A DNA stretch of 64,000 bases from Myxococcota bacterium. Lineage in GTDB: Bacteria > Myxococcota_A > UBA796 > CAJQPC01. The notes under the pieces were generated by a model. The model did no database searches and was not told where the DNA came from. It saw only the letters and a program-made list of their open reading frames with translations. The DNA lies in assembly GCA_036229005.1 (NCBI GenBank), contig JAZAMN010000052.1, forward strand, positions 96,001 to 160,000. Reading direction: 5' to 3'. Positions 6,401 to 26,245 of the stretch are shown here, piece by piece. Within the stretch, counting starts at the first letter, position 1, and the number at the start of each line of letters is the position of its first letter. Both the position numbers and the translations under genes were made by a program.

Positions 6401-6502
6401 GCGACGGTGGTGATCGGTGGGCTGCTGACGGCAACGCCCGTCACTCTGCTGGTGCTGCCGTCGATCTACGGGCTGCTGTTCAAGGGGGAGGACCCAGCCT
6501 GA
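3464..6502 (+). CDS. czcA: CzcA/CusA-family heavy-metal RND efflux transporter
   Basis: DAFPDLTNTQVQV, GLGEVYQF, TM4 NLMSLGAIDFGLVVDGTIVVVE, RFRPVLMTALVA, GAEVQRPLATVVIGG; 1012 aa. Confidence 0.92.
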   Translation: MSLLSALIEASVRHRVLVLALTLLGVLGGALSMQRLTFDAFPDLTNTQVQVLTSSGGLGSEEVELLVTLPVERSLQGIPGIAELRSVSRPGVSSVTVVFEEGTDPNLARQWVKERVDLAREDIPPGLGSPELAPPTTGLGEVYQFTVASDSRSPSSLYGVFRADIAPRIQALDGVVEVNAWGGGEPQLDVVIDPWALAARGLTLPDVEAALQAAVGVESGGSLEAGSERASLRVIGNPDTPEALAELPLAPSVRLGDVAEIRDSGSLTVGLGTADGEGEVVFAVVQLLAGADARSVSREVQERVAEIQASLPDDVRIEPIYEREKLVGSTLHTVAKSLTEGGLLVILVLLLLLGDLRAGLVVASVIPMALLGAFVGLNTLGYSGNLMSLGAIDFGLVVDGTIVVVESIVALQLAANQSLREAVVQSTRSVARPVLFAVGILLLVYLPVLAMVGTEGRLFRPMAVTVLMALATALLLSFTYVPAISSFLVKPRGDHSTWLLAKARALHGPLLDAAMARPKVTIAVGALAITGTLALGTTLGVEFVPRLEEGDLAIQTARLPSISPAMAKAESTRIERIIQQFPEVERIASRTGSPALATDPMGMEEADILVRLRPMDQWETAADTEGLTAAFEAALRAGAPGPEYTFTQPIQMRFNELLEGITSDVGVSIYGSDLDALLLAGQQVAAALESVDGAADVVAPSLEGLAVVDLELQPERLARLDSDPVAARMMVAAVQRGVPVTQVIRGQYQDPVVLKIDAPKHVSLLDLPLATPAGVVSMGDVLSLSSGQRAAVVERDAGSRRVVVQANVRGRDLGSFMEDAQRAVDGVALPDGYWVSWSGEYEQLREASDRLALTLPLTLIAVMVMLYYAFASWRPAALILLAVPAAVSGGILALMGRGLPLSMSAIVGFIALSGIAVMNGIVLLSRTRELHRQTTSQQAALESARERFRPVLMTALVAGIGFVPMALAQGVGAEVQRPLATVVIGGLLTATPVTLLVLPSIYGLLFKGEDPA

Positions 6503-7528
6503 TCACGCGGCCTGCAGAGCCAGGCGCTCCCGAGCGAGCCGGTACTCCCGCTGGAGCCGGCGCGCCCGCCCCACCCGGGGGTGGATGGCCTGGATGGGCC
6601 CAGGGTCGTTCTGCAGGGAGCACTCGTTGACCAGGGTCCAGGCGTGGTGCGCGGTCTGGAGGGCGCAGTCCAGCGCATCGACCGGGGTGGCGCCCGCCCG
6701 CAGCTCAAAGACCCGCTGGGCCATCTGACGCAGCTCGGGGTGGCCGGCGTCCTGGAGGCTGTCCAGCACCTGGGCGCGGACCCAGCGCTCGCTCAGGCTC
6801 AGCCAGCCGCGGGCCTCTCGCTCGTCCAGGGGCAGCAGCTCGCCGGTGGCCTCGAAGTAGAGCAGGTTGGCGGCGTACATGTGCCCGGGCGCGCAGAAGC
6901 CGCAGCCGTTGCCGAAGGCGGTGAGTCCCGCCAGGACCTGGGCCTGCCAGTCCCCCACCATCTCCTCCAGGCGGGTCAGGGCGCGCTGCAGGGAGCGCGA
7001 GAGCTCCCCCGTGGCCCCGGCGACGCCGTAGGTCGTGAGCATGGTCTCCAGGAAGGGCGCCTCGTAGCCGGCGGACATGCGCATCCCCCAGCCCATCCCG
7101 CGGGCCAGCCCGCGCTCGATGAAGGAGGCCTCCCGGCCGGGGGTGGTCTCCAGCTCGGGCACCCCCATGGCGGCCAGCGCGTCCCCCAGCCGGGAGCCAC
7201 CCTTGGCCAGCGTGCGGGCAGCCAGCGCCCGGTCGATCAGCACCTTGGTGTCCCGATCCTGCGCCCGGTGAAAGGCCACCACACAGAGCCCCCGGGTCGC
7301 CGGCACCCCCGCTGCGTAGGCCAGCGAGGTCCCCTGCGCGCGCAGGGTCTGGTGCACCTGGGACAGCTCAGCGGCCGCGCCGGGGCTGAGCGCGTGCTCC
7401 CCCAGATCCACGACCGCGTGGGTGCGGCCCGCCAGCAGCTCCGGCAAGGGCGCAAACACGGGCTCCCCCGGCGCCTTGAGCACCGCGGCGAAGGCCTCAT
7501 CTTCGATCAGCTCCCAGAGTGTCTGCAC
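6503..7528 (-). CDS. Hypothetical protein: possible STAS-like N-terminus plus AhpD/carboxymuconolactone decarboxylase-like CxxC-H domain
   Basis: HAVVDLG...LSQVHQTLRAQGTSLAYA resembles STAS; NGCGFCAPGH resembles the AhpD CxxCxxxH motif. Overlaps the upstream kinase stop. Confidence 0.55.
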   Translation of the reverse strand: MQTLWELIEDEAFAAVLKAPGEPVFAPLPELLAGRTHAVVDLGEHALSPGAAAELSQVHQTLRAQGTSLAYAAGVPATRGLCVVAFHRAQDRDTKVLIDRALAARTLAKGGSRLGDALAAMGVPELETTPGREASFIERGLARGMGWGMRMSAGYEAPFLETMLTTYGVAGATGELSRSLQRALTRLEEMVGDWQAQVLAGLTAFGNGCGFCAPGHMYAANLLYFEATGELLPLDEREARGWLSLSERWVRAQVLDSLQDAGHPELRQMAQRVFELRAGATPVDALDCALQTAHHAWTLVNECSLQNDPGPIQAIHPRVGRARRLQREYRLARERLALQAA

Positions 7529-9120
7529 GGTCGCGCTCCCAGGAGCGCCCGCAGGCGCTCGACGTCAAAGGGTTTGTGAAGCACGCCGTCCAGCCCCGCT
7601 GCGGCGCACTCGGCCTGCATCTGCGGACCCTCCAGCGCCGTGAGGGCCAGCACCGACGGGCCTCGTCCTCCCCAGCCCGCGCGCAGCCGCCGCGTGGCCT
7701 CCAATCCATCCATCTCCGGCATCTCAAGGTCCATCAGCACCAGCTCCACCGACCCGGGATCGGCGAGCGCCTCCACGGCCTTGACCCCGCTGGGGAAGCC
7801 CTCCGCCCGCGCCCCGGCGGACTGCAGGATCCGCATGGCCACCATCAGGTTCACCGGGTTGTCGTCCACCACAGCGACCCGCAGGTCCCGCAGGGCGTCC
7901 GAGGCGCTGCGCTCAAGCTGGCTGCGCCCGACCGACACCACCGCGCAGATCTCCGTCCCCCGCACAGGGGCGCTCTCCAGGTGCAGCGACCCATCCATCG
8001 CCGCGCACAGCGCCCTGCACAGCCCCAGCCCCAGCCCCTGACCCTGCGCCCGACCGCGCACCGACCCCGTGGCCTCCAGCGGCGCGAAGAGGTGCGCCTG
8101 CTCCGCCGGGCCCAGCACCAGCTCCGGTGCCCGGAAGGACCACGACAGCGCGTAGCCCTTCGCCGTCTCCCAGGCGTCCACCCGGAGCTTCAGCGGGCCG
8201 CCGTTGGCCAGCGCCACCATGAACTCCCCCAGCCGGAGCAGGAGCTGACGCAGTCGGGCCATGTCGCCGCGGACCCAGTCCGGGAGCCCATCCAACGAGG
8301 CCACCAGCCCCAGGTCCCCCACCACCTCCAGGAGCTGACGCAGCTCCAGATCCCGCCGCCGCAGCTCGAAGTCCCCCACGTCCAGCGCCGCGTAGTCCAG
8401 CACGTCCCCCACCAGACGCTGGAGCTGCTCGCCCGCGGTCCGCAGCCCGCTCAGCTCCTCCCGCCCCCGCACATCCAGGGCCTGCAGCTCCAGGAGCTGC
8501 GTGAAGCCCAGCACGCCATTCAGGGGCGTCCGCAGCTCGTGGCTCAGCGCCGCCATCACCCGCGACCGCATCTCCGCGGCCTCCCGCCCCGCCTGCACCG
8601 CCGCCCGCTCCGCCCGCAGCGCCCGCTCGTCCGCCGAGCGATCCACGCCGTGCAGCAGGAAGCCCTGGATCCCTCCGTGCTGGTCCAGCAGAGGCGCCGC
8701 CTTGAGCTGGAAGCTGCGCTCCTGGTGTTGGGCGTCCAGCAGCTCCAGCGACACCCCCGAGAGCAGCTCCGGCAGCGACAGCGCACGCTCCTGTACGCAG
8801 AGGTCCCGCAGCAGCGCCACCACCGACTCCCCACCCACCGGAACCCCGAAGAACGCGCGCGCGACCTGGTTCTCGGCGACGACGAGGCCACCCGCATCGA
8901 GCTGCAGCAGCAGCGTGGGCAGCTCGGTGAACATGGCCTCCATGTGGGAGGCGTGGACCATCTCCCGCCGGAGCTGCTGGACCAGCACCTCGAGCGCAGC
9001 CGCGAGCTCGCCGAGCTCGGGACTCTGGGGGGTCGGGATCTGCGTGTCCAGGTCCAGGGTGACGAGCTGATAGACAGCCGCCATCAAGGCCTGGAGATCG
9101 CGGGCGAGCTGGGAATGCAC
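7507..9120 (-). CDS. Hybrid histidine kinase/response regulator (PAS-HisKA-degenerate HATPase-REC)
   Basis: H-box LSHELRTPLNGV, G2 GQGLGLGLC, receiver VVDDNPVN...LMDLEMPEMDG...LHKPF. Start estimated at GTG 9120, since the longer ORF overlaps the sulfatase gene. Confidence 0.85.
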   Translation of the reverse strand: MHSQLARDLQALMAAVYQLVTLDLDTQIPTPQSPELGELAAALEVLVQQLRREMVHASHMEAMFTELPTLLLQLDAGGLVVAENQVARAFFGVPVGGESVVALLRDLCVQERALSLPELLSGVSLELLDAQHQERSFQLKAAPLLDQHGGIQGFLLHGVDRSADERALRAERAAVQAGREAAEMRSRVMAALSHELRTPLNGVLGFTQLLELQALDVRGREELSGLRTAGEQLQRLVGDVLDYAALDVGDFELRRRDLELRQLLEVVGDLGLVASLDGLPDWVRGDMARLRQLLLRLGEFMVALANGGPLKLRVDAWETAKGYALSWSFRAPELVLGPAEQAHLFAPLEATGSVRGRAQGQGLGLGLCRALCAAMDGSLHLESAPVRGTEICAVVSVGRSQLERSASDALRDLRVAVVDDNPVNLMVAMRILQSAGARAEGFPSGVKAVEALADPGSVELVLMDLEMPEMDGLEATRRLRAGWGGRGPSVLALTALEGPQMQAECAAAGLDGVLHKPFDVERLRALLGARPCRHSGS

Positions 9121-12324: not shown

Positions 12325-12368
12325 GGGGCGCAGTGTACTCCCTGGCCGCAAGCGCTACCCTTGCCGCC

Positions 12369-15300
12369 GTGGAACCCCTGAGCGCCTACCGCGACCTGCG
12401 GCCCTTCGCTGGGCAGCACCGCAGCCTGCTGATGCGGGGGCGGACCCGGGCGGACGACCGGGCGGTGGTGATCAAGCAGGCCCAGGGCCACGCCGCACCT
12501 CGCCTGCAGAGAGAAGGTGCACTGCTGACGCGCGCCCAGGGGCCAGGGGTTGTGGAGGTGGTGGACTGGCGCCCAGAGCTGGGCCTCCTGGTCCTGGAGG
12601 ATCTGGGCCCGCGCAACCTGGCGGCCCGCCTGGGCGAAGGCCCGATGGAGCTGGGGGAGACCCTGCGGCTGGTGCAGCGGCTGGCCGGGACCCTGGCGAC
12701 CCTGCACCAGGCACAGGTGCTGCACCTGGACCTGCACCCCGAGAACGTGGTGCTGCGCGCGGACCAGCCGGTGCTGGTGGACCTGTCCAGCGGTGCGCGC
12801 ATTGGCGAGACCCCGCAGCCCCGCCGCGACGGCCCCCAGTGGCACCTGGCCCCCGAGCAGCAGCCCGGCAGCGGGCGCGAGGTGGGTCCCAAGACGGACC
12901 TGCACGGGCTGGGGGTGCTGATGTGGTGCTCCCTGGTGGGCGTGGGCCCGCCCATCGACGGGATCCACGCGCCCAGCCTGCGCTCGCTGGCGCCCCACCT
13001 GCCGGATGCGGTCCACCACCTGCTGGAGGCGCTGCTGCACCCGGCCCCGGAGGGTCGCCCCGAGAGCGCCGCGGCCGTGGCCTTGCAGGTCGCCAAGCTG
13101 CGCGCCCCCGGACTGCCACCGGAGCTGGCCAGCCTGCACCACTCCGAGGCGCGGGAGACCCTGGCGCGGGCGCTCGCTGCGGCCGACATCGGCGACATGT
13201 CGGTGGTGTACCTCAAGGGCGGCCCTGGCGCGGGCAAGTACCCCCTGGTGCGGCAGCTCACCGCGATGCCGCCTGCGCGGCGAGGGGTGGTGGCGATCGG
13301 GCGCTGCTCTCCCCTGCGCGACGGAGGCCCCTACGGCCCCTGGCTCGCGGCGCTGCGCATGGGGATCCACTCCGCGATGGAGGGGAACAACGCGGCGGAG
13401 AACCTGCAGGCGGTGCGCGAGGCGATCGGCCCGGACGCCGGCCTGCTCCTGCGCATGGTCCCCGAGCTGGAGGACCTGCTGGGGCTCGATGCCCCCCGGG
13501 CCCTGGGCGAGCCCAGCGGAGAGCAGGCCCTGGCCAACCTGGTGCGGCGGGTGCTGCAGGCGCTCTGCAGGCCCGGCGCCCCCCTGGTGCTGGTCCTGGA
13601 GGAGGCCCAGTGGCTGGACCAGGCCAGCGTCCGGCTGCTGGAGAGCCTGGCCAGCCCCCCGCGCCACAGCGGGCTGCTGCTGCTGCTCACCTACCAGCGG
13701 GAAGCCGTCTTGGCGGGCGACCCCCTGGACCGGGCGCTGCAGGCCCTGGAGAGCCGGCGCCCCCAGCGCATCCGCCTGTCTCCCATGACCGAACAGCAGC
13801 TCCTGCTGCTCTGCCGACAGCACCTGGATCTGGAGGACGGAGAAGCCCGCGCCCTGGCCAGCGTGCTACTGCGGGCCAGCGGCGGGCTCCCGGGGAAGGC
13901 GCTGCGGGCGCTCCGCCAGCTCCACAGCAGCGGCGCCCTGCGGCAGGACTTGTGGCAGGGGAGCTGGACCTGGGACGTGAAACGCCTGGCGCAGATCGAC
14001 GATCGCCTGGTGCCCGAGAAGCTGGGCCTGCTGGAGCTCGCCGACCTGCCCCCCGCCGCCGCCACGCTGATCGGGCAGGCCTCGTGCATGGGCCCCGAGG
14101 GGGAGATCCAGGCGCTGGCGCGGGTGTCTGGCAGCTCAATGGCGGAGCTGCGCCCCTTCCTGGAGGCCGCCGCCGAGGCCCGCCTGATCTACCTGAACGG
14201 TAGGAGCTGGCGCATGGCCGACCAGGAGCTGCAGCAGGTCGCCCGCGAGCGCTTGCCGCAGGCGCTGCGCCTCCAGACGCACCGGCGCATCGCCCGGCTG
14301 CACCTGGAGAAGGGCGACGTGGAGCACTTCTTTGTGGGGGTGGACCACCTGAACCTGAGCGCGGGGCCCCAGGAGACGGACGCCGAGCGCCAGGAGCGTG
14401 CCCACCTGAACGTGGAGGCGGCCCGCCGGGCGCGGCACGGCTCGGCCTACGACGCGTCCTTTGCCTACACGGCCGCAGCGCTGGCCGCCGCGCCCTCCCA
14501 CTGGAGCGCCCGAAACCGCCTGGAGCTCTACAAGGAGGCCGCGGTCACCGCCCACCTGTCGGGCGACCAGGCCCGGGCCCAGCGCATGCTGGAGCAGGCC
14601 ACCGCCCACGCGCAGGGGGCGCTGGAGCGGGCGGTGCTGGCCGAGATCCGGGTCCACACCCTGCTCACCAGCGGCAAGCTGGCCGAGGCCCGCCAGGTGG
14701 GGCTGAGCGCCCTCGCCGAGTTCGAGCTGAGCCCGGAGCAGCAACCCCAGGTCCCCTCGCCGCCTCAGCTCTCGCGCCTGATCACCCAGCCCCCGGAGCT
14801 GGGGCAGCTCACCAAGGTCCGGAACGCCCTGCTGGCCCGGATGATCCAGCTCGGCTGGTACCAGGATCCCGCGCTGGTCCGCTGGGCGGCCGGGCAGCTC
14901 TGCGCGCTCGCCGTCCAGGAGGGCCCCACCGCCGAGACCGCCGTCGGCATGCTCGCCGTGGCCCTGGGACACAGCCTGAGCGGCTCGCCCAAGCTGGGGC
15001 TGCAGCTCGGAGAGGACGCCCGCTCCCTGGCCTTCGCCGTCGACCCCGACGACCCCTGGGTGCCCTACGTGCAGGCGGTCCTGGCCGCCCGGCTGGAGGC
15101 CCAGGTCCACAGCGCCCCCCAGGTGCTGGAGCGCCTGAGCGCAGCGATCTCCCGCCTGGAGACCCTGGGGCGCCACCACGACGCGCTGGTGTTCGCCGTC
15201 CCTCGCGCTCTGCTGGCCCTGCAGGCCGGACAGCCCCTGGCCGAGGTCGAGCAGCGCTGCGAGCAGGACCTGGAGCAGGCCCGCCGCCTCCAGCACCTGG

Positions 15301-17513
15301 GCGCGCTCGACCGGCTGCAGGTGCTCCGCCAGCTCTGCCGGGCCCTGGCCGGCAAGACCCGCCCGGGGCGCCTGGACGACGCCGGCTTCACCGAGTCCGA
15401 CCTGCTCGCCGCCGCCGCCACCGACATCGAGACGCGGGCGCTGCTGGAGGCCAGCGCCCTGTGGCTGGCGGTCCTGGCCGACGACCCCCTGAGCGCCCGA
15501 ATCCGCGCCGACGCAGCCACCGAGGCCTGGGGGCTGCTCGGCCCCAGCGCGATCGCCCCGCTACTGCACACCCTGCGGGGGATCGCCCGCCTGATGGGGC
15601 GCCCTGGCGCCGAGAGCATCGCCCAGGCCGAGGCCGACCAGCGCTGGCTGGACAGCGCCGGCTGGTCCCTCGCGGCCCTGCTGCTCCGCGCCGAGCTCCA
15701 GCGCGCCCAGGGGCAGCAGCTCTCGGCCCTGGGCAGCTACGATGCGAGCATCCAGGGTGCCCGGGAGCTGGGGCCCGCCTGGGTGCTGCTCGCCGCCTCC
15801 CGGGCCGCCAGCTTCCACGGCGCCTCTGGCCGCGCCCAGATCGCGGAGAGCTATCGGAGCGTGGAGCGGCGGGCGCAGGCCGCCTGGACCGAGGAGACCT
15901 CGCCGGCACCCCGTCGCGCAGAGGGGGTCGCGCCCCAAGATGCCAAGGGGGTGTTGGGCAACCTGCTGCACGCCTTCACGTTGGCCTCCCTCGCCCAAGG
16001 ATGCGCGCTGGTCCTCTGCCAGCCCGAAGGACCGGTCCTGCAGCTCCGCCACGGCCCCGAGGGCCTGACCACCCACCAGGAGCCCGTCACCGACTCCAGC
16101 CCCGTGAGCGCCGCGGCTGTTCGCGTCGTGCTGGCCACCCAGCGCCCCCTCCAGTCCGGCGCCTGCAGCTCCGACCCCCGCCTGCAGGGCGACGACTGGC
16201 TCCGCCGCTCCGGCACCCGCAGCCTGCTGGCCTGGCCCCTGCGCGCCGACGGTCGGATCCTGGGCGTCGTGCTGCTGGAGAGCCGCGTCCCCGCCTCCCT
16301 GGTGACGCCGCCGCCCCTGCTGCACCTGCTCCGAAAGCAGCTCATCGCCACCCTGCTCCAGCAGGAGAAGCTCACCGAGCTGCAGCTCAGCGCCCGCAGC
16401 CAACCCACCCACACCACCGCCCAGGAGACCACCGAGCTGCGCTTCCAGGACCTGTTCGCCGGCGCCCCCGACCCCATGCTGCTCTGCGACGACGACGGGC
16501 GGGTCGTCCTGGCCAACGCCCCCGCCGAGCGCGCCTTGGGCCTGCTGCACCTCAAGCACCGCCGCCTCGGCCAGCTCCTGCACGCCCCCGAGGCCATCGC
16601 GCGCGCCACCCCGGAGCTGATGACCCTCGGCGAGGTCCACGGCCTGGAGCTCACCCTCCCCTCCGGCCCCTACCTGGCCTCGGCCACGCGCCTGCACATG
16701 GGCGGCCGCGCGCCTCTGAGCGTGTGGGTGCTGCGCAGCGTCGCCCCCCTGGTCCAGGCCACCCGCGCCCTGGAGCAGCGCATCGCGGAGCGCACCGAAC
16801 AGCTCACCCGCTCCAACGCCGAGCTGGAGTCCTCCAACGCCGAGCTCCGCCAGTTCGCCACCCTGGCCTCCCACGACCTCAAGTCCCCCGTCCGCACCGT
16901 CTCCAGCTACCTGAGCCTGCTCCAGCGCCGCCACAGCGACCAGCTCGACGAGAAGGGCCGCAGCTACCTGGAGCGCAGCGTCGCCGGCACCTTGCGCATG
17001 CAGACCCTGATCGACGACCTGCTCAGCTTCTCCCAGGTCGGCCAGGACCGCCGCCCCTTTGTGCGCGTCGAGCTCAGCGAGGTCCTGGGCACCGCCATCG
17101 AGAACCTCCAGGGCGAGATCCTGGCCACCGGCGCCCGCGTCGAGCTCCCCAGCCTGCCCGCCGTCCCCGGCAACCCCTCCCGCCTGGGCCAGCTCTTCCA
17201 GAACCTGCTGGGCAACGCCCTCAAGTACCGGCGCGAGGGCGTCGCTCCCCACGTGCGCGTACAGGCCCACGCCCGCGGCGGCCTGCTGCACCTGCGCATC
17301 ATCGACAACGGCATCGGCATCCCCGCCGCCTCCCAGCACGTCGTGTTCAACATCTTCAAGCGCCTGCACGGCAAGGGCAGCTACTCCGGCAACGGCATCG
17401 GGCTGGCCATCTGCCGCAAGATCGTGGAGCTGCACGGCGGCCGCATCTGGGTCGAGTCCCACGACGGCCCCGGCACCACCTTCGCCCTCACGCTGCCCAC
17501 CTACGCCGAGTGA
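12369..17513 (+). CDS. Multidomain Ser/Thr kinase-like / AAA (STAND) / TPR-like / GAF / PAS / histidine kinase sensor
   Basis: VVIK and HLDLHPEN (kinase); GGPGAGK and LVLEEAQW (AAA_16); GAF (RSLLAWPL..GVVLLE); PAS; ASHDLKSP, NLLGNALKY, DNGIGI, GNGIGLAIC. Start GTG 12369 inferred from a -10 motif (ORF track 12333). Confidence 0.88.
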   Translation: MEPLSAYRDLRPFAGQHRSLLMRGRTRADDRAVVIKQAQGHAAPRLQREGALLTRAQGPGVVEVVDWRPELGLLVLEDLGPRNLAARLGEGPMELGETLRLVQRLAGTLATLHQAQVLHLDLHPENVVLRADQPVLVDLSSGARIGETPQPRRDGPQWHLAPEQQPGSGREVGPKTDLHGLGVLMWCSLVGVGPPIDGIHAPSLRSLAPHLPDAVHHLLEALLHPAPEGRPESAAAVALQVAKLRAPGLPPELASLHHSEARETLARALAAADIGDMSVVYLKGGPGAGKYPLVRQLTAMPPARRGVVAIGRCSPLRDGGPYGPWLAALRMGIHSAMEGNNAAENLQAVREAIGPDAGLLLRMVPELEDLLGLDAPRALGEPSGEQALANLVRRVLQALCRPGAPLVLVLEEAQWLDQASVRLLESLASPPRHSGLLLLLTYQREAVLAGDPLDRALQALESRRPQRIRLSPMTEQQLLLLCRQHLDLEDGEARALASVLLRASGGLPGKALRALRQLHSSGALRQDLWQGSWTWDVKRLAQIDDRLVPEKLGLLELADLPPAAATLIGQASCMGPEGEIQALARVSGSSMAELRPFLEAAAEARLIYLNGRSWRMADQELQQVARERLPQALRLQTHRRIARLHLEKGDVEHFFVGVDHLNLSAGPQETDAERQERAHLNVEAARRARHGSAYDASFAYTAAALAAAPSHWSARNRLELYKEAAVTAHLSGDQARAQRMLEQATAHAQGALERAVLAEIRVHTLLTSGKLAEARQVGLSALAEFELSPEQQPQVPSPPQLSRLITQPPELGQLTKVRNALLARMIQLGWYQDPALVRWAAGQLCALAVQEGPTAETAVGMLAVALGHSLSGSPKLGLQLGEDARSLAFAVDPDDPWVPYVQAVLAARLEAQVHSAPQVLERLSAAISRLETLGRHHDALVFAVPRALLALQAGQPLAEVEQRCEQDLEQARRLQHLGALDRLQVLRQLCRALAGKTRPGRLDDAGFTESDLLAAAATDIETRALLEASALWLAVLADDPLSARIRADAATEAWGLLGPSAIAPLLHTLRGIARLMGRPGAESIAQAEADQRWLDSAGWSLAALLLRAELQRAQGQQLSALGSYDASIQGARELGPAWVLLAASRAASFHGASGRAQIAESYRSVERRAQAAWTEETSPAPRRAEGVAPQDAKGVLGNLLHAFTLASLAQGCALVLCQPEGPVLQLRHGPEGLTTHQEPVTDSSPVSAAAVRVVLATQRPLQSGACSSDPRLQGDDWLRRSGTRSLLAWPLRADGRILGVVLLESRVPASLVTPPPLLHLLRKQLIATLLQQEKLTELQLSARSQPTHTTAQETTELRFQDLFAGAPDPMLLCDDDGRVVLANAPAERALGLLHLKHRRLGQLLHAPEAIARATPELMTLGEVHGLELTLPSGPYLASATRLHMGGRAPLSVWVLRSVAPLVQATRALEQRIAERTEQLTRSNAELESSNAELRQFATLASHDLKSPVRTVSSYLSLLQRRHSDQLDEKGRSYLERSVAGTLRMQTLIDDLLSFSQVGQDRRPFVRVELSEVLGTAIENLQGEILATGARVELPSLPAVPGNPSRLGQLFQNLLGNALKYRREGVAPHVRVQAHARGGLLHLRIIDNGIGIPAASQHVVFNIFKRLHGKGSYSGNGIGLAICRKIVELHGGRIWVESHDGPGTTFALTLPTYAE

Positions 17514-17523
17514 CCCCGCGCCC

Positions 17524-19083
17524 ATGAGCACCCCCGCCCGCGAGGCCCTCGACGCCCTCATCGAGCAGTTCTCGGAGCGCTCCGCCGCCATCCGCGAGCT
17601 CGTACAGAACAGCCTGGACGCCGGCGCCGGCAGCGTGGAGCTCCGCATCGAGCAGCAGGGCCGCAAGCTCCGGATCCACCTGGTCGACGACGGCCACGGC
17701 ATGGACCGCGCCTGCATCCAGGACAACCTGCTGACCCTCTTCCGCTCCAACAAAGAGGACGACCAGACCAAGATCGGCCGCTTCGGCGTCGGCTTCGTCT
17801 CCATCTTCGCCCTGGAGCCCGAGCTGGTCGTGGTGGACACCGGGCGCGACGGCCTGCACCACCGCGTCGTGTTCGACGCCAAGCAGCGCTTCACCCTGGC
17901 CCAGGTCGACGAGCCCTTCGAGGGCACCGCCGTCACCCTCACCCTCCGGAGCTGGGGAAAGCCCGCCGGTGAGCTCGCCCAGGAGCTGCGCGCCGCCCTC
18001 CACTACTGGTGCCGCTACGCCCGCGCCGAGATCTGGTGCGAGGCCCAGGGCGAGGGTTGGGAGGGCTGGCCCGAAGAGCGCGTCCAGGCCCCCTGGGAGG
18101 TCGACAGCCCCCTGCGGGTACAGGTGGAGGAGGACGGGCTGAGGGCCTCTCTAGGCTACCACGCCCACCGCCTGGCCCCCGTGGGCTACTACAACCGCGG
18201 ACTGACGCTCCTGGAGGCAGACGAGGACACACTGCCCGGGGTCAGCTTCCGGGTCGAGGCCGGGGCGCTGGAGCACACCATCACCCGCGACAACGTGCTG
18301 CGCGACGGCCACTGGGAGCTGGTGATCCAGCGCCTGCGCCGCGCCGAACAGGAGCAGCTCCGCCCCGCCCTGCTGGAGGCCCTGCGCGCCGCCATCCAGG
18401 CCCAGGACTGGGAGCGACACCGCGCGCTCCTGGCCGTCTGCCCCCACGTCCCCCTCCCCGACGACGAGCCTCTGCTGCGCCGCGCCGGCGGCGGTCTCGC
18501 GGCCCTGGGCGCCGTCCCCAAGCGCTTTCTGGGCCCGCGCCGCGTCCTGTGGGCCCCCGGCCCCAGCCCCCTGGTCGAGGCCCTGGAGCAGGACGGCCAC
18601 CTGGTCCTGCTGGGCCCCCCCGGCGAGCGCCCCGAGTTCGCCCTGCTGCACGCCGTCTACCCCGAGGTGCTCAGCGAAGAGGCCCCGGCCACCTACCTCT
18701 TTCCTCGCCTGGCCCCGGATCCCCCCTGGCTGGCGTCGCTGGAGTCCACGCTCAAGCGGTGGGCCGATCAGTCCCCCAGGGGCCACACAGCCCCTCCCTC
18801 CCCCGGCCGCCGGGAGCGCGTCCACGCAGCCCACTTCCAGGGCGGCGGCACCCAGCTCGAGGGCCGCCTGATCCTGCGACAGCGCGCCCCCGGCAGCCTG
18901 GAGGCCTGGGACGGCCGCCCCGACAAGGGGAGCTGGCTCATCAACCTGGATCACCCCCTGGTCGCCGAGGCCGCTGGGCTCTCCCCCGAGCGCGCCGGCG
19001 TGGGGCTCGCGGTGGCGGCCGTGCGGGCGCTGGGCTCCGGTGCGCCGCTGCCCGCCGATCTGCTGGACGGGGTGGCCCCATGA
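17524..19083 (+). CDS. Hsp90/HtpG-like GHKL ATPase (compact, 519 aa)
   Basis: All four Bergerat motifs: IRELVQNSLDA, DDGHGM, KIGRFGVGF, GTAVTL. M-domain-like LEHTITRDNVLRD; C-terminal LINLDHPLV. Confidence 0.85.
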   Translation: MSTPAREALDALIEQFSERSAAIRELVQNSLDAGAGSVELRIEQQGRKLRIHLVDDGHGMDRACIQDNLLTLFRSNKEDDQTKIGRFGVGFVSIFALEPELVVVDTGRDGLHHRVVFDAKQRFTLAQVDEPFEGTAVTLTLRSWGKPAGELAQELRAALHYWCRYARAEIWCEAQGEGWEGWPEERVQAPWEVDSPLRVQVEEDGLRASLGYHAHRLAPVGYYNRGLTLLEADEDTLPGVSFRVEAGALEHTITRDNVLRDGHWELVIQRLRRAEQEQLRPALLEALRAAIQAQDWERHRALLAVCPHVPLPDDEPLLRRAGGGLAALGAVPKRFLGPRRVLWAPGPSPLVEALEQDGHLVLLGPPGERPEFALLHAVYPEVLSEEAPATYLFPRLAPDPPWLASLESTLKRWADQSPRGHTAPPSPGRRERVHAAHFQGGGTQLEGRLILRQRAPGSLEAWDGRPDKGSWLINLDHPLVAEAAGLSPERAGVGLAVAAVRALGSGAPLPADLLDGVAP

Positions 19084-22000
19084 GCACCCGGGAGCAGGCC
19101 CTGGAGGACGCCGAGGTCCTGCTGGAGGGCGAGTTCAAGCTGGACCGCGCCCGCGCCATGGACAAGCTGGCGCGCTTCCAGCTCGAGGAGCCCCACCGCT
19201 ACGTCCTGGAGCTGCTCGCTGCCGCCATCCGCGGGGGCGCCCAGTTCGTGGAGATCCTCAACGACGCCGACGACTTCGTGATCGAGTGGGAGGGCGACAC
19301 CCCCACCCCCGCCGAGCTGGAGCAGCTCTTTGAGCACATCTTCCTGCGCGAGGGCGACGACCGCAGCCGCATGCTCCAGCACCTGGCCCAGGGCCTCCAC
19401 GCCGCCCTGGCCCTCAAGCCCCGGTGGCTGCACTTCGAGCGCCCCGGCGCCCGCTTCGAGATGGACAGCAGCGGCGCCCTCCACGGCAGCCCCCACGACC
19501 GCAGCAGCGGCACCCGCATCCACCTCCGGGAGCGCCTGAGCCTGGACATGCTCCGGGAGTGGCTGGGCACCCCGCGCGAGACCTGGCTGCTCCAGGAGTT
19601 CGCCGCCCACGCCCCCATCCCGCTGATCCTCAACGGCGAGGCCATGGAGCGCGCCCGCCCCCCCGCCGACCAGCGCCCCCGCGCGCAACAGGGCCACAGC
19701 TGCATCTGGCTGGAGGTCAGCGGCGCCAGCCCCGGGGTGGCCCTGATCCGCGACGGCCTGCGCATCGAGCACCTGCCCATCCAGCTCGGCCCCCTCCAGC
19801 TCACCGGGTGGTGGCACGCCGACGCGCTGCGCCTGAACGCCTCTCGGTCCAAGGTCGCGCGGCGTGCGGATCTACGCCCCCTGCGTACCCACCTCCTCAA
19901 GTCCATCCTGCCCGCGCTTGAGCAGCACCTGGACCACCCGCGAGGTCACTTCGAGCGCGCCCAGATCCAGCTCGCCGCCCTGGCCCTGGTAGCGGAGCTT
20001 GGCCGCAAGCACCTGGATTCACTCGGGGATCGCCCCCTCTTCCTGGACCTGACCGGCCGCAGCTTCTCCCTGGAGGCGCTGGCCAGTCACAAGAAGATCT
20101 GGCTCACCAGCCGCCCGGGGCTCGCCTCCCGGCTGGAGCGCGCGCCCCAGTTCCTGGAGGGCGAGGGCCAGGACCCCATGGACCGCAACAGCCTGCAGCT
20201 CGCGGCCCTCCAGGCGCGCTTCCCCGGCCGCCTCATCAACGCCGACGCCGCCCTGCGCGACAACCAGGAGGGCGAGGCCCGCCGCTCCGCCCTGCTGCGC
20301 GCCGACCCCGAGCTGCCCTTCACCCGCGGGCTGCCCGAGCACTTCTCCGGCCCCGGCGGCCTGATCGGCTCCGCCTCGGTGCTGGGCGGCGGCAGCGTCG
20401 CCCGGGTGGAGTTCTGGGTGGACGAGCTCCCCGTCGAGACCCTGGCCGTCAACCTGCCCGCCGGCCTGGGGCTGCGGGTGGGGGGCCCCGGGCTGCGGGC
20501 CGACCGCCGCTTCGAGAAGGTGGAGCGCGACGCCGCCTTCAAGGCCGCCCAGGAGCTGGCCCTGGAGCAGGGCCGCCAGTACCTGCTGCACCTCGCCGAG
20601 CACCACGCCGCCGACCCCGACGTGGCCGCCCTGCTGCGCGACTGGCTGGTGCGCCTGGCCCCCCGGGACGCCCTCGACGCCCTGGACCCCGCGCTGGCCC
20701 AGGCCCCCCTGTTCACCGACGGGCTGGGGCAGCGCCGCAGCGTCCGCGAGCTCGCGGCCTGGCTCAAGGCGGACGGCCGCATCGAGATCGCCGCCGGGGA
20801 GCCCGCCGGCGCCCCCTTCCCCCGGACCCTCGCCACCGACGACAGCGCCCGCCGCACCCTGCGCGCCTGCTTCGGACACCGGGCCCTGCTGGACCTCAGC
20901 CAGCGCATCGAGGACCACCGCCACGCCCAGCTCCGCCGCGCCGCCGCCCTGCCGCGCCCCATGCGCCTGGAGCGCCACCTGATCGCCCGCGTGCCGGTGG
21001 CCGCCGAGGGCCTCTACGGCGAGCTCGGCCTGTCCCCGGTGGAGGACCGCGCCTTCACCGAGGTCCAGCTCTTCCGCTCCGGCGTGGACCTGGGCACCCT
21101 GCTGGTGGACCTGGGCGTGCCCGGCACCCTGGCCATCCTGAGCTGGGAGGGCCTGGAGCCCGACGCCCGCTGGGAGGCCCCCGCCCACCCCGAGCGCGAC
21201 CGTCGCACCCTCGCGCGCCTGCTCAAGCCCTTCGTGGCCCCCCTGCTCCAGGGCGTCCTGGGCGCCCTGCCCCTGCCCAGCGAGCGCATGCCCGCCTGGG
21301 TCGGGAACGTCCTGGACAGCAGCAGCGCCGCCATCGAGCCCCTGCTCCAGGCCCCCCTCTTCCTGGACGCCAGCGGAGGCACCTGGAGCGTCGTGGAGCT
21401 GGAGGCCCGCGCCCTGGGCGCCCGCATCCCCGTCCTGGGCCCCGGCAGCCCCCGGGTGCCCGATCGCCTGCGCCACGCCCTGCTCCTGGACGGCCCCCGC
21501 TACGCCGCGCTGCGCCGGCGCATGGCCGAGAGCCTCTGGGACGCCTCCCTGTGGCTGGAGCAGTGGCACCAGGCGCGCACCGCCTTCTTCGAGCGCGCCC
21601 CCCTGCCCCCCTGGCGAGAAGACAGCGACCCCGGCCTGCGGCGCTTCAGCCACCAGGGCCTGGAGCTGCAGGTCCTCCCCGCGGACGCCCCCAGCCACAC
21701 CCAGGGCCTCAAGCTCAGCCTGCTCTTCGAGGGCCGCCCCCTCCAGACCCTGGTGCTCCCCAGCGCCATCCCGGCCAGAGCCCGCCTCAGCGGCCCCGCC
21801 CTGCTCCCCGACGACCGCTACGCCGGCACCCAGGACCCCGAGAACCTCAGCCTCCTGCGGAGCTGGTGGGCCGCCGACTGCCTGGAGCAGTGCATCCAGG
21901 ACTGGCTCCCCGACGCGCGCCTTCCCCGCGCCCAGCGCCTGCTCCTGCTGGGTCAGGTCCTGGACCTCCAGCCCGCCCCCCCAGGCCTCGCCGCCCTCAA

Positions 22001-24368
22001 GGCGGCCCCCCTGATCAACACCCCGCGCGGGGACCGGGCCTCCTTCGAGCAGCTCCTGCAGGCCAGCGCCAACAGCGCCCTCCTGCTCATCAGCCCCCGC
22101 CTCGCCGCGCTCGTCCCCGACGACGACCGCCTCTGGGTGATCCCCGAGCCCAGCCTCCGGCCCCTGCTCGCCCGCCTTCCCTCGGAGCCCCTCGACGGCG
22201 ATCTGGAGCTCTCCAGGCTGGACGAGGGCCGCCGCAACCGCGCCCGCTCCCGCATCACGCCCCTCTGGCAGCCCGGCCCCTGGGAGGCCGCCGCCCGCTT
22301 CACCGCCGGACCCGCCGCGCTCTTTGTCTGCATCGCCCCCCACCCCAGGGACACCCAGCGCATCTGGCGCGTCGAGGGCCGCAGCGTCCAGGCCGACCGC
22401 GTCCCGGAGTGGCCGCCCGAGCTCCAGGTCCACGTGGAGCACCCAGAGCTCCGCGCCAACACCGCGTTCAACGCCGTCGTGGACGCCCCCCTGCTGGCCG
22501 AGCTGCGCACCCTCAGCGACCAGGCCGTCGCCGCCCTGCTGGCCGCCCTCTGCGGCGTCGCCGACCCCCGCCTCTCCGAGCTCCAGGTCCCCCGCCCCGA
22601 GGCCATCCCCCGCACCCTGCTGCGCTACGGCGCCTCCCGCCCGCGGGTCGACGCTCTCTGGGGCGAGCACCCCCTGGTCAGCGACAGCCAGAGCCGCCCC
22701 CTCAGCGCCCGCGACCTGCGCACCCTGGGCCGCCGCGGCATCCCCGTCATCTCCTCCGGCCGCATGGGCCCCGGCCTGGACCCCGAGCGCCCGCTCATCC
22801 CCGCCACCCAGGCCCTGCGCGACCTGCTGGAGCGCTGGGGACGCCTCCAGGACGCCGAGTCCGACTGGCAGGCCGCCCGCGAGCGCGACCGCCGCATGGC
22901 CATGGCCCCCGTCCAGCGCAGCCCGGCCCAGAACGCCCCGTGGGTCCACCCGCTGAGCCCGCCTCACCAGGGCTTCGTCCAGGCCGGGGTCCCAGGGGCT
23001 GTGTTGGAGCTGCTGCACCAGGGTCGACCGCTCTGCACCCTGGACTGCGCGGGCCCCGTGCCGCTCTCCGGCGCAGTCGAGGACACCCGCATCCTGCCCA
23101 ACCTCCGCCACGACGCCCCCGAGCAGGGCCCCGCCCTCACCGCCCTCCAGCAGCACCTCACCGAGCTGAGCCGGCAGGCCCTCCAGGCCCTGCTGGTGGC
23201 CCCCGACGCCCTGCCCCTGAGCCAGTGGGTGCCCATCCTCCAGCGCGCCCTCCCCCGCAACCGGGACCGCCGCGGCAAGGGCCGCAACCCCGAGCTGGCC
23301 ACCCTGCCCCTCTTCCCCACCGGCGACGGCGAGCGCCTTAGCCTGGCCCAGCTCCACGACATGCCCGGCGAGCCCCGCTGGGTGACCGCCGACCACGCCA
23401 CCCCCAGCCTGGAGCCCGAGCACCCCTTCCTGGTCGTGCCCAGCGGCCTGATGCTCCCCCTGATCGAGTGGCTGGGCGGCCACGACGCCCAGTCGGAGGC
23501 CCGCGCGGAGGCCGCCCGCCTGCGCAGCCGCCGCGCCAAGGGCCTGGAGGGCAGCGACAAGATGCTGCACAGCCTCCAGCGCAGCCTGATCCCCGGCGAG
23601 CTCCACCTGGGCCTGCGCCGCGGCTTCGGCCAGGGCTGGGTGGACGTGCGCTGCGACGGCATCCCTGTCACCCGCCTGGACTTCCACCTGCCCGGCCTCA
23701 GCGGCGCCCTCGAGGTCGGCCGCGAGCACCTGACCCGCGGCCTGCGGGACCTGCGGGAGCCCGAGCCCTTCCGCCACCAGATCACGGGGGCCTACGCCGA
23801 GCTGATCGCCGCCGCCGCCCCCCGCCTGCGCGAGGGCGGCCTGCTGCGCTGGGAGGTCACCCGCCTGCTCTCCACCCTCAAGAAGGGCCCCGCCGCCAAG
23901 GCCTGGCGCGCCGCCCCCCTGCTGGATGGCCCCAGCGGCCCCTTGAGCCCCGAGCAGGCCGCCAAGGGCTGCGTCTGGTCCCCCCAGCCCATCGACGGCG
24001 CCGTCTGCGTCTACGACAGCCGGGCCAACCGCGGCTTCCTGGAGGCCCTGGGCATCCGCCCCCTGGAGCCCGTCGCCTGGGCCGCCCTCCAGGAGCGCCG
24101 CCGCTCCAAGGCCGCCAAGGCCGCCACCTCCGTGGACAGCGGCTGGCAGAAGCGGGTGGTCAAGCGCAGCCTGGCCCAGCTCTCCGCCGGCCTGCGCCTG
24201 GACCGCGCCCTGCGCAAGCGCGTGCTGGGCCGCAGCATCCCCACCCAGCTCGACAGCGAGCCCAAGCTCCTGCGCTTCACCTGGGAGGCCCTGGATCGCG
24301 AGCTCGCCCGCGCCGGACGCTGGCAGGACTGCGGCCTGGTCGCGGTCCGCGCCGTCGGCCTCCTATAG
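19080..24368 (+). CDS. Large protein (1762 aa): degenerate GHKL N-domain plus seven tandem ~210-aa repeats
   Basis: ATG overlaps the upstream stop (ATGA). GEFKLDRARAMDKLARFQLEEPHRYVLEL N-terminus; PL(F)xDxxGxxxS motif recurs every ~610-670 nt; GC-rich third-position codon usage throughout. Confidence 0.8.
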   Translation: MSTREQALEDAEVLLEGEFKLDRARAMDKLARFQLEEPHRYVLELLAAAIRGGAQFVEILNDADDFVIEWEGDTPTPAELEQLFEHIFLREGDDRSRMLQHLAQGLHAALALKPRWLHFERPGARFEMDSSGALHGSPHDRSSGTRIHLRERLSLDMLREWLGTPRETWLLQEFAAHAPIPLILNGEAMERARPPADQRPRAQQGHSCIWLEVSGASPGVALIRDGLRIEHLPIQLGPLQLTGWWHADALRLNASRSKVARRADLRPLRTHLLKSILPALEQHLDHPRGHFERAQIQLAALALVAELGRKHLDSLGDRPLFLDLTGRSFSLEALASHKKIWLTSRPGLASRLERAPQFLEGEGQDPMDRNSLQLAALQARFPGRLINADAALRDNQEGEARRSALLRADPELPFTRGLPEHFSGPGGLIGSASVLGGGSVARVEFWVDELPVETLAVNLPAGLGLRVGGPGLRADRRFEKVERDAAFKAAQELALEQGRQYLLHLAEHHAADPDVAALLRDWLVRLAPRDALDALDPALAQAPLFTDGLGQRRSVRELAAWLKADGRIEIAAGEPAGAPFPRTLATDDSARRTLRACFGHRALLDLSQRIEDHRHAQLRRAAALPRPMRLERHLIARVPVAAEGLYGELGLSPVEDRAFTEVQLFRSGVDLGTLLVDLGVPGTLAILSWEGLEPDARWEAPAHPERDRRTLARLLKPFVAPLLQGVLGALPLPSERMPAWVGNVLDSSSAAIEPLLQAPLFLDASGGTWSVVELEARALGARIPVLGPGSPRVPDRLRHALLLDGPRYAALRRRMAESLWDASLWLEQWHQARTAFFERAPLPPWREDSDPGLRRFSHQGLELQVLPADAPSHTQGLKLSLLFEGRPLQTLVLPSAIPARARLSGPALLPDDRYAGTQDPENLSLLRSWWAADCLEQCIQDWLPDARLPRAQRLLLLGQVLDLQPAPPGLAALKAAPLINTPRGDRASFEQLLQASANSALLLISPRLAALVPDDDRLWVIPEPSLRPLLARLPSEPLDGDLELSRLDEGRRNRARSRITPLWQPGPWEAAARFTAGPAALFVCIAPHPRDTQRIWRVEGRSVQADRVPEWPPELQVHVEHPELRANTAFNAVVDAPLLAELRTLSDQAVAALLAALCGVADPRLSELQVPRPEAIPRTLLRYGASRPRVDALWGEHPLVSDSQSRPLSARDLRTLGRRGIPVISSGRMGPGLDPERPLIPATQALRDLLERWGRLQDAESDWQAARERDRRMAMAPVQRSPAQNAPWVHPLSPPHQGFVQAGVPGAVLELLHQGRPLCTLDCAGPVPLSGAVEDTRILPNLRHDAPEQGPALTALQQHLTELSRQALQALLVAPDALPLSQWVPILQRALPRNRDRRGKGRNPELATLPLFPTGDGERLSLAQLHDMPGEPRWVTADHATPSLEPEHPFLVVPSGLMLPLIEWLGGHDAQSEARAEAARLRSRRAKGLEGSDKMLHSLQRSLIPGELHLGLRRGFGQGWVDVRCDGIPVTRLDFHLPGLSGALEVGREHLTRGLRDLREPEPFRHQITGAYAELIAAAAPRLREGGLLRWEVTRLLSTLKKGPAAKAWRAAPLLDGPSGPLSPEQAAKGCVWSPQPIDGAVCVYDSRANRGFLEALGIRPLEPVAWAALQERRRSKAAKAATSVDSGWQKRVVKRSLAQLSAGLRLDRALRKRVLGRSIPTQLDSEPKLLRFTWEALDRELARAGRWQDCGLVAVRAVGLL

Positions 24369-25025
24369 ACCGCTCCCCCGCATCAGCCGCCACAGCGCGC
24401 CGGACCCGCCCGCCTCCTCCAGCGCGATGAGCTGCGCGTTCAGGTCCACCAGCGCCAACTCCAGGTCGGTCTCCAGGTCCGGGTTGGGGGAGATCACGTG
24501 CAGCGTCTCCAGCTCCCCGGGAACGCGGGCGAGCTGGATCAGCATCAACAGCTCATCGCCATCGAGCACCTCGACCAAGGGCCAGTGCTCCATCAGCGCG
24601 TGGGCCAACTCCTCCAGGCGGTCGGCCGACAGAGCCAGCAGACCCAGGACCGGCTGCTCCCCCGGCAGTGCAGCCAGCAGCTCACACAGCTCCCGCGGCG
24701 CGCCCAGCTCCCGCAGCGCCCCCGGCGCCGGCAGCACCCGCCCCGACAGATCCACCCGCGCGTCGATCGGGACCACGCCGTCCCCGGCCACCGACGACCA
24801 GCCCTCGCCCAGCCAGGCCACCCGCACGGACGCCGCGCTCAGCCGCCAGTAGAGCCCCGTGTAGAGCGCCAGCCGGGGCGAGATCCCCGAGACCAGCCCC
24901 GCCGTCGTGAAGGCCCGGTCCGGCCCCGTCGAGCGGCCCATGCGCGCCGACGCCGTCCAGCACTGCAGGCCCGGCGTCCGCTCCACCGATGTCAGCTCCA
25001 AGGTGCGCAAGCGGCGACCTCCCAC
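24363..25025 (-). CDS. Hypothetical protein
   Basis: 220-aa ORF with plausible composition filling the gap downstream of the phosphoesterase; start uncertain. Confidence 0.55.
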   Translation of the reverse strand: MGGRRLRTLELTSVERTPGLQCWTASARMGRSTGPDRAFTTAGLVSGISPRLALYTGLYWRLSAASVRVAWLGEGWSSVAGDGVVPIDARVDLSGRVLPAPGALRELGAPRELCELLAALPGEQPVLGLLALSADRLEELAHALMEHWPLVEVLDGDELLMLIQLARVPGELETLHVISPNPDLETDLELALVDLNAQLIALEEAGGSGALWRLMRGSGL

Positions 25026-25031
25026 CCCAGC

Positions 25032-25934
25032 CTAACTGCCCATCTCCGGGGGAGGAGGGGCCGATCCGTAGCGGTGCCAGATGGGCCCACCGCTCCCGCT
25101 CTCTGGCGCCGCGGGCCCCGGAAGGATCTGCCGCACATACGAGGACACACCGACCCCCTGGTGCCAGTGGCGGGGGTAGCCCAGCGCGACCTCTTCAAAG
25201 CGCACCCCATCCCGCCAGTCCGTCGCGCGCATGTGCAGGTGCCCGCTGACCACCACCTGGGCGCGGAAGCGGCGGTGCCACTGCTCGGTCAGCCGCGTCC
25301 CGCACCAGGGCGTGAAGCGCGCCACCCGCTGGGGGAGCCGCACCAGATCCCGCCGCAGCGGCCAGTGGCCCACCAGCAAGGTGCGGGCCTCCGGGGGCAG
25401 CTCGGCCTCCATGCGCCGCTCGGTGCTCTGGACCCGCGCCGCACACCAGCTCTGCAGGTCCGGGTAGGGGTCCGGGTGCCAGAGCCGCTCGTCCGTGCTG
25501 ACGATGTGCTCCTCCCAGGCCCACTTCCTGGCCTGATCGGGGTCCATCCCCTGGGGCCCCATGCTGTAGTCGATGCCCACAAACAGCGGCACCAGCCACA
25601 GCCCCGGGTGCCCCTCGATCGGCCGGTAGGGGCACTCCGGCGTGATCACACCGCGCGCCTGGCACAGCCGCACAAGGCGGTGGTAGCGGGCGCGGCCACG
25701 CAGCTTGGACTCGCAGCTCCGGTGGGTCCACAGCTCGTGGTTCCCGGGCACCCAGACCACCGCGCCGAAGCGCTCCTGGAACACATCCAGGCAGTAGCGG
25801 AGCTGCTCCAGCGTCTCGCCGATGTCCCCCACCAGCAGCACCATGTCCTGCGGATGGGAGGGCAGCTCCAGCAGCGCCTCGCGGTTGGCCTTGTAGCCGA
25901 TGTGGAGGTCCGAGATGGCCCAGATGCGCGTCAT
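25032..25934 (-). CDS. Calcineurin-like metallophosphoesterase, PptH (Rv2795c)-like
   Basis: IWAISDLH, VGDI, VPGNHELWT, PWCGT, SGHLH, DGVRFEEVALGYPRHW. Confidence 0.88.
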   Translation of the reverse strand: MTRIWAISDLHIGYKANREALLELPSHPQDMVLLVGDIGETLEQLRYCLDVFQERFGAVVWVPGNHELWTHRSCESKLRGRARYHRLVRLCQARGVITPECPYRPIEGHPGLWLVPLFVGIDYSMGPQGMDPDQARKWAWEEHIVSTDERLWHPDPYPDLQSWCAARVQSTERRMEAELPPEARTLLVGHWPLRRDLVRLPQRVARFTPWCGTRLTEQWHRRFRAQVVVSGHLHMRATDWRDGVRFEEVALGYPRHWHQGVGVSSYVRQILPGPAAPESGSGGPIWHRYGSAPPPPEMGS

Positions 25935-25987
25935 GGCGTCCCTCTAAGCCGTCGGCCCCCTGCGGCGCCTGCCGGAGCCCTCCAGGC

Positions 25988-26245
25988 CTACTTCACCTCG
26001 TTCACCGACGCGTCCATCTCCGCGTTGAAGTCGGTCCGCAGGGTGATCAGCGGCGTGAACCCGGGGCGCTCGTACTCATCGAGCATGATCAGCTCCGGGC
26101 CGGCCAGCACACCCTCCAGCTCCAGCGCGGTGAAGTCGATGTGGGTCTCGGCCTTGTAGGTCACCTGGGGCTCATCGTCCTGGGCCAGCGCAGGGCTGGC
26201 GACGGCGGCGGCGAGGAGGGAGAGGGCGAGCAGCTTGCGGGTCAT
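25988..26245 (-). CDS. Small secreted CglF/GltF-like gliding motility protein
   Basis: Signal peptide, then YKAETHIDFTALELEGVLAGPE...FTPLITLRTDFNAEMDASV. Matches the recalled CglF pattern (IDF.D..VEGEL.KPE...F.SLI.VR.NF..E..KS). SD GGAG present. Confidence 0.75.
   Translation of the reverse strand: MTRKLLALSLLAAAVASPALAQDDEPQVTYKAETHIDFTALELEGVLAGPELIMLDEYERPGFTPLITLRTDFNAEMDASVNEVK

Follow-up and report, generated by a model that had tools for sequence, protein, structure and literature searches.

A Myxococcota protein with a pseudo-ATPase head, seven Hsp90 middle-domain-like units and a coupled GHKL ATPase partner

How might a giant protein built of Hsp90-like middle domains work when its own ATPase head has lost the motifs of an ATP site? 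This question was raised by a gene at positions 19080 to 24368 of a 64,000-nucleotide stretch (the window) from a Myxococcota bacterium (assembly GCA_036229005.1, contig JAZAMN010000052.1, positions 96,001 to 160,000 of the forward strand). Hsp90-type machines are understood to be symmetric homodimers with one client-holding middle domain per subunit. The family described here departs from that rule: its live and dead heads lie on two proteins, the client-holding domain occurs up to ~14 times, and the genes are coupled or fused. The initial annotation had described the giant gene and had overlooked the intact ATPase encoded directly upstream of it. We consider the case evenly balanced that the giant protein serves as the non-catalytic half of a two-subunit, asymmetric clamp, in which the only working ATP site would lie in this 519-aa GHKL ATPase. 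The two genes and the parts of the giant protein are as follows.

17524..19083, plus strand: partner gene, 519-aa sacsin/Hsp90-like GHKL ATPase with one unit like the Hsp90 middle (M) domain (Pfam, NCBIfam, hhalign)
19080..24368, plus strand: giant gene, 1,762 codons, pseudo-GHKL head followed by seven M-like units; stop codon 24366-24368
19080..19676, plus strand: degenerate GHKL (Bergerat-fold) N-terminal domain, residues 1-199 (hhalign to the partner family; model of the head plus unit 1)
19677..20360, plus strand: unit R1, residues 200-427, with LNASRSK
20361..20996, plus strand: unit R2, residues 428-639, the unit modelled with AlphaFold2
20997..21656, plus strand: unit R3, residues 640-859, hhalign 96.6-97.6% to R2, R4, R5 and R6
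21657..22274, plus strand: unit R4, residues 860-1065, hhalign 97.1-98.3% to R2, R3, R5 and R6
22275..22955, plus strand: unit R5, residues 1066-1292, hhalign 98.3% to R2, R4 and R6
22956..23588, plus strand: unit R6, residues 1293-1503, hhalign 96.6-98.3% to R1-R5
23589..24176, plus strand: unit R7, residues 1504-1699, the most divergent, independent E-value (i-E) 4.6e-26 with the hidden Markov model (HMM) of the unit
24177..24365, plus strand: C-terminal tail, residues 1700-1762, kept among orthologues

Seven units behind a degenerate head

The open reading frame (ORF) of the giant gene was unbroken from the ATG at 19080 to the stop codon, and its orthologues began with the same Met. The ATG shared the letters ATGA with the TGA of the preceding gene. 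The open frame stretched back to 18009, where it gave a Pro/Arg/Gly-rich, off-frame translation. The guanine plus cytosine (G+C) content of the gene was 72-77%, and its third-position G+C (0.89) matched that of the real genes nearby. The protein had no match in Pfam, NCBIfam or PADLOC (E<=0.1, 0.1 and 0.01, respectively).

Two motifs, A and B, had been reported to recur in register seven times, and all 14 of their coordinates lay in frame and read as claimed. The spacing was 213-222 aa between successive A motifs, 203-224 aa between successive B motifs and 62-74 aa from A to B; the unit length was ~215 residues. The internal repeats were borne out by repeat detection with unit profiles, which were built from six orthologues, each cut into units. 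Local hhalign comparison linked 18 of the 21 unit pairs at more than 70% probability and 15 at more than 93%, with E-values down to 1.4e-14 and 140-198 aligned columns in register, whereas column-shuffled controls (n = 21) gave no more than 0.4%. Unit R7 aligned at 96.7% probability to R2, 83.3% to R4 and R5, and 7.7-31.5% to R1, R3 and R6. BLASTP between single units was weak (best E 0.001-0.01), yet in register. The period was, as had been stated, invisible in the DNA, in which no long-period repeat was found and the sole matches were short and ~70% identical.

Seven units were present in every complete orthologue. In a tree of 49 units (FastTree), the units grouped by position and not by genome: R1, R2, R4 and R6 were monophyletic, and so were R3, R5 and R7 save for one divergent genome. 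It follows that the array of seven was in place before these species diverged. The head was the most conserved part of the protein, with a mean pairwise identity among orthologues of 50% vs. 26-33% for the units.

Some related loci carried irregular ORFs. One orthologue was split between units 3 and 4 into two overlapping frames (L014:2420-5642 and 5448-8573, plus strand), through either a frameshift or a faulty assembly. Short "full" ORFs of the same sort, with 3 units, were seen in L039 and L044.

Structure models covered unit 2 and residues 1-427 of the protein. The AlphaFold2 model of unit 2, made from an alignment of 58 units (A1), had a predicted local distance difference test (pLDDT) score of 89.8 and a predicted template modelling (pTM) score of 0.80, and it comprised a beta-meander, two long helices and a small alpha/beta subdomain. 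All 15 Foldseek matches of this model in the PDB at E<=1e-3 belonged to the Hsp90 family, in agreement with the earlier view of each repeat as an M-like module, and the middle-domain-only entries 2gq0, 1hk7 and 1usu (HtpG and yeast Hsp90) stood lower in the list. In a VIA comparison with the whole PDB, ranks 1-11 were all transducer or middle domains of GHKL proteins, and Z fell from 4.5 to 3.0 at rank 12. The VIA scores included MORC3 (Z 7.6; 77 aa, root-mean-square deviation (rmsd) 2.1), GRP94 (Z 6.8; 172 aa), MORC2 (Z 6.4), the M domain of HtpG (Z 5.9; 173 aa, chain residues 277-485) and the small middle subdomain of Hsp90 (Z 4.5; model residues 112-180). The first half of the unit thus superposed best on the MORC3 transducer, whereas the whole unit matched the Hsp90 M domain over twice that length; no MORC sequence model matched the giant protein in the Pfam, NCBIfam and PADLOC scans. 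The A1 profile gave two chance-level rows against PDB sequences (E 0.1 and 1.1). The predicted fold supports an Hsp90 M-like unit despite moderate Z scores, since three lines agree: the match list is specific, the whole unit is covered and there is a link by sequence as well.

Within the giant protein only unit 1 has LNASRSK, so the Ser-Arg loop is confined to the first repeat, as had been suggested. Its pattern L-x-L-N-x-S-R resembles LQLNVSRE of HtpG, and its A-to-B spacing, up to L-x-F...S-L, equals the 69 residues from LQLNVSRE to LVRFNS...VSL in the HtpG of the same genome. LNASRSK aligned with the invariant HTxTRDNV of the partner, and the Arg was found in 59 of 183 family members; its position and spacing suggest that it may correspond to the catalytic-loop Arg of Hsp90.

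The head plus unit 1 (residues 1-427) was modelled from an alignment of 19 sequences (A2), with a pLDDT of 84.5. VIA placed 369 residues of this model on HSP90-beta with Z 18.2 (model 13-403 on chain 11-590), an overlap that took in the N domain and the complete M domain, and Foldseek matched it to TRAP1 with E 1e-15. By VIA and Foldseek, the model had a Bergerat fold followed by a middle domain with an S5-like large and a small alpha/beta subdomain, which is the fold order of the Hsp90 proteins (HtpG, TRAP1, Hsp82/Hsc82, GRP94). Unlike in these proteins, the M domain is repeated seven-fold in tandem, and no Hsp90 C-terminal domain was detected in the giant protein, of which the two models represent residues 1-427 and unit 2.

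The head aligned by hhalign with the intact partner family (96.9% probability, E 1.4e-10, 259 columns) and could be recognized as the degenerate GHKL domain that had been proposed. The motif losses read from it also held: Ala48 stands at the N-box Asn, E71-G72-D-T74 at DxGxG and Q100..A103..G105 at GxxGxG, so that, compared with Hsp90, the head has lost the Asn of the N-box and the greater part of the G1 and G2 boxes. The GT of the last motif (G144-T145) and the catalytic Glu (E44) are retained. The position of the Mg-binding Asn was occupied by Ala in 160 of the 183 family members and by Asn in 0, and the first and second Gly of the G2 box were replaced by R/Q and Ala across the family. Judged by its motifs, the head is a family-wide pseudo-ATPase.

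By sequence, the head went unrecognized in Pfam, NCBIfam and the PDB. The giant protein had no match to Pfam HSP90 or to the NCBIfam HtpG models NF003555 and NF010683 at E<=0.1, and the A2 profile reached no PDB chain at E<=1. Since hhalign of A2 directly with the genome's own HtpG gave 0.5%, the sequence link of the giant protein to Hsp90 is only transitive, via the partner. The possibility that each unit is itself a whole degenerate GHKL head was ruled out, as the head profile gave less than 1% probability against all seven units (hhalign, global mode).

The partner ATPase and its coupling to the giant gene

The partner matched Pfam HATPase_c_3 (1.9e-14) and SACS (1.3e-8; score 35.4 vs. a cut-off of 32.8), and NCBIfam NF047352 with 53.4 bits vs. 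a cut-off of 50. Its motif residues E25, N29, D32, D55, G57, G59, G85, G88 and G90, as well as LEHTxTRDNV, were invariant in 10 of 10 homologues. The unit HMM matched all 10 partners as well (i-E 1e-5 to 1e-10), at residues 205-369 in the window's protein. The partner was detectably homologous to the HtpG of this genome (hhalign 97.6%, E 2.6e-12). Its C-terminus and the tail of the giant protein were unrelated to each other. Because an intact ATPase is encoded upstream, a stand-alone dead scaffold is less likely than a two-subunit machine.

The partner thus passed both sacsin-type head models (SACS, PF25794, and NF047352; PDB heads 5V44-5V46), and the giant protein matched no sacsin model. The giant protein resembles sacsin in its size and in its repeated Hsp90-derived modules. 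Each sacsin repeat is described as having its own ATPase head (PMC3629688; 10.64898/2026.09.30.754977). In the giant protein, by contrast, the middle domain alone is repeated, behind one dead head.

The coupling of the two genes was followed in 80 related loci from public genomes, 75 of which had enough upstream DNA. In 73 of these 75 loci, the partner was the immediate upstream neighbor, in the same orientation. Its stop codon overlapped the start of the giant gene by 4 nt in 35 of these 73 loci, and the two genes were within 60 nt in 63. The pairing is therefore near-obligate and translationally coupled. In three genomes the two are one protein: single stop-free ORFs of 1,834-2,020 codons comprised partner and giant (L086:3685-9744, L089:4237-9741 and L094:3534-9056, all on the plus strand), with SACS/HATPase_c_3 at the N-terminus. 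The metagenome-assembled genomes carrying these fusions came from different assemblies, and their junction sequences were similar, not identical.

The window's genome holds two such pairs, each with its own partner. The second pair is shorter (L017:3444-6680 and L017:6641-8458, both on the minus strand; G000 contig C16); its dead-head protein has ~1,066 aa, and its GHKL partner is encoded upstream of it. In this paralogue class of ~1,100 aa, hhalign found only one unit (94%), and the equivalent of motif A reads LRKTADQ.D, with Gln in place of Arg. A canonical HtpG is encoded elsewhere in the same genome (L117:1501-3294, minus strand; G000 contig C8; NF003555, 701 bits), so this organism has the pair on top of its normal Hsp90. 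In a Nannocystis pusilla record (L101:5950-6663, plus strand), the dead-head ORF ended after 238 codons with the partner intact upstream; this ORF is possibly a pseudogene.

Complex prediction for the partner (519 aa) with residues 1-427 of the giant protein gave scores of 0.45, 0.45 and 0.44 vs. 0.06 for the best control. The partner pLDDT was at least 77 in these runs, and at least 75% of the contacts agreed. Of 157 solved complexes, 116 reached the mark for this score, as did 2 of 215 mismatched pairs; with a score of 0.60 or under, only 18 of the 157 solved complexes reached the mark, and both passing mismatches lay in this range. The prediction is thus weak support for binding between the partner and the N-terminal part of the giant protein.

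A proposed asymmetric clamp and its alternatives

We favored an asymmetric clamp because the live and dead heads are homologous, the coupling is near-obligate, fusions occur and the dead head is conserved. By analogy with the workings of Hsp90, MutL and GyrB, the live head would pair with the dead one: upon ATP binding, the partner head would dimerize with the dead head, and the closure would shift an arm of seven middle domains, ~1,500 residues long, from a single ATP site. The arm might offer an extended multivalent surface for binding, spacing or tethering putative clients, a guess drawn from Hsp90 biology. MutL-alpha (MLH1-PMS2) is a GHL clamp of non-equivalent subunits, both heads of which bind ATP. 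The proposed machine would share with it the clamp principle, two GHKL heads and unequal subunits; here, however, one head lacks the Mg-binding Asn throughout the family (0/183), and the dead subunit has three times the length of the live one. GHL ATPases in general are described as having two heads that close upon ATP binding and pass the motion on via middle domains (10.64898/2026.09.30.754977).

Several observations weigh against the asymmetric clamp. The fold scores of the unit are moderate (VIA Z 5-8, Foldseek template modelling score 0.38-0.50, rmsd 6-9 Å). The score of the predicted complex falls in the weak band, and a resemblance to solved Hsp90 dimers may account for its pass. Homodimers are usual for Hsp90-type ATPases, and the partner, which has a head, a middle unit and a C-terminal region, could by itself make up a full machine as a homodimer. 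Of the 183 family members, 150 retain the catalytic Glu position and 114 the G1 Asp position, so that some nucleotide contact is possible in some members. A single event may underlie the three fusions, which are closely related. Finally, with the window's partner as query, no partner was found in the 6 kb of upstream DNA of either L050 or L069. The giant homologue of L050 has seven units.

The initial annotation had pictured the giant protein as a stand-alone, ATP-independent scaffold or holdase that serves several clients at once; the neighboring ATPase would then be a separate homodimeric chaperone, cooperating with it as Hsp70 does with Hsp90 and never pairing head to head. We regard this as unlikely. 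Conservation peaks in the dead head, which would be odd for a vestige, and the 4-nt overlap in 35/73 loci and the three single-ORF fusions count against this reading, as does the predicted complex, in which 0.45 against controls of at most 0.06 may point to direct contact. The loss of the ATP motifs from the head nevertheless suits a scaffold, and in Hsp90 clients and co-chaperones bind chiefly to the M domain; the complete architecture of the partner and the weak band of the complex score count in the same direction. A structural role was also weighed and appeared the most doubtful of the alternatives: the giant protein would be a ruler, a tether or a filament subunit, and the partner would load, remodel or disassemble it as a dedicated client and not as a co-subunit. 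A length-determining role would fit the number of units, which is fixed inside subfamilies and differs between them (7, 8, 12-14), and the orthology of unit positions and the faster evolution of the units than of the head are compatible with it. Evidence of self-association, a coiled coil or a membrane anchor was not found, however, and the homology between the two heads argues for a pairing of like domains.

A GHKL module of conflict or defense (cf. MORC, paraMORC, Tiamat and Hsp90-like antiphage proteins), whose arm would sense or trap nucleic acid or protein of an invader, with the live ATPase as a switch, seems improbable. It was suggested by the PADLOC matches of the partner head to TmtA of Tiamat, by matches of the partner to NCBIfam MzaB and BbrUII, which lay far below cut-off, by the closeness of the S5-like half of the unit to MORC3, and by copy numbers of up to 5 in some genomes, some of them as tandem arrays. 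The TmtA matches (best 9.9e-12), however, were limited to residues 9-103 of the partner, on profiles 1,300-1,650 positions long; the giant protein had no match to PADLOC TmtA. A nuclease, helicase, methylase or other effector was found neither in the window locus nor in the annotated loci, and the partner, in this respect different from Tiamat, carries no nuclease or other effector domain. The neighbors are ordinary chromosomal genes (AcrB, metallophosphoesterase, GDSL, glycogen phosphorylase), occurrence tracks taxonomic families instead of being patchy, and each unit has a net charge near zero. Both the setting in the chromosome and the vertical mode of spread within Myxococcota favor a housekeeping role, in proteostasis or assembly, over defense.

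A wider proposal builds on the asymmetric clamp, and we put it forward tentatively: Myxococcota and a few other phyla would possess, beside HtpG, a second and obligately asymmetric Hsp90-type machine, with a live ATPase subunit and a dead one whose arm of 1 to ~14 tandem middle domains, seven of them here, would be a multivalent client platform of coded length, swung as a whole by ATP at a single site. If so, the machine would stand for a class of its own among chaperones or assembly machines, and its dead subunit would be the first protein in nature to be built of Hsp90 middle-domain arrays. The folds and the clamp principle are already known. What is new is the permanently dead head on a separate subunit, the tandem arrays of middle domains and the conserved two-gene or fused layout, none of which was found in Pfam, NCBIfam, PADLOC, the PDB or the literature. 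A full-text search, with subscription journals outside its reach, turned up no description of an Hsp90-like protein that combines a dead head with tandem middle domains. Should the two proteins form a clamp, they would amount to a natural experiment on two questions: whether one ATP site suffices for an Hsp90-like cycle, and what arrayed middle domains do.

Distribution of the family and neighboring genes

The unit profile was searched against 1.84 billion cluster representatives (clusters at 50% identity) and matched 1,027 of them at E<=1e-3, 693 at 1e-10 and 290 at 1e-30. The survey of unit number in homologues, which had been recommended, gave a range of 1 to ~14. Among the best 150 of the 1,027, proteins of ~1,800 aa typically had 7 matching stretches, those of ~2,250 aa had 8 and those of ~3,000 aa had 12-14. 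A recount in 193 proteins found 81 with seven units and the dead head at the N-terminus of 183; the other 10 look N-terminally truncated.

By record title, nearly all members came from Myxococcota, including the cultured Nannocystis, Enhygromyxa and Plesiocystis, and a few from Eremiobacterota, Vulcanimicrobiota or Xenobia. In a sample taken evenly over the phylum, 67 of 301 Myxococcota genomes had a member at E<=1e-10. Occurrence depended strongly on the taxonomic family: 21 of 26 genomes in one (f18) and 0 of 23 in another (f20). The window's DNA was present in seawater and marine metagenome runs of four studies. The title of named members was always "hypothetical protein", and no member had a precomputed Pfam domain. 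Thousands of such proteins would gain a name from Pfam-type models for the unit and the dead head, and the cultured carriers make the biology of the pair testable.

In one Myxococcota family, the dead-head genes formed tandem arrays of three, ~4 kb apart (G086:C11:87694-95946 and G191:C21:91948-102007), with up to five copies per genome.

The genes flanking the pair in the window were the following.

12333..17513, plus strand: sensor gene of 1,726 aa with Ser/Thr-kinase, AAA_16, GAF, PAS, HisKA and HATPase domains, stopping 10 nt before the partner
24363-25031, minus strand: gene assigned by codon-position G+C
25032-25943, minus strand: metallophosphoesterase gene, assigned by codon-position G+C

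Membership of the kinase/sensor gene in the system was rejected. Of 81 loci, only three (the window's, L037 and L038) had it upstream, and it is thus lineage-specific and outside the core. Two ORFs upstream of the C16 paralogous pair were likewise set aside: they occurred in 4 loci each, 5 in all, of 81 sequences, three of these loci were near-identical relatives, and neither ORF was present at the window locus.

The two minus-strand genes on the downstream side are convergent with the giant gene, and the transcription unit therefore terminates with it. A long ORF at 24498-26159 on the plus strand is probably spurious, as codon-position G+C puts the real genes of this region on the minus strand.

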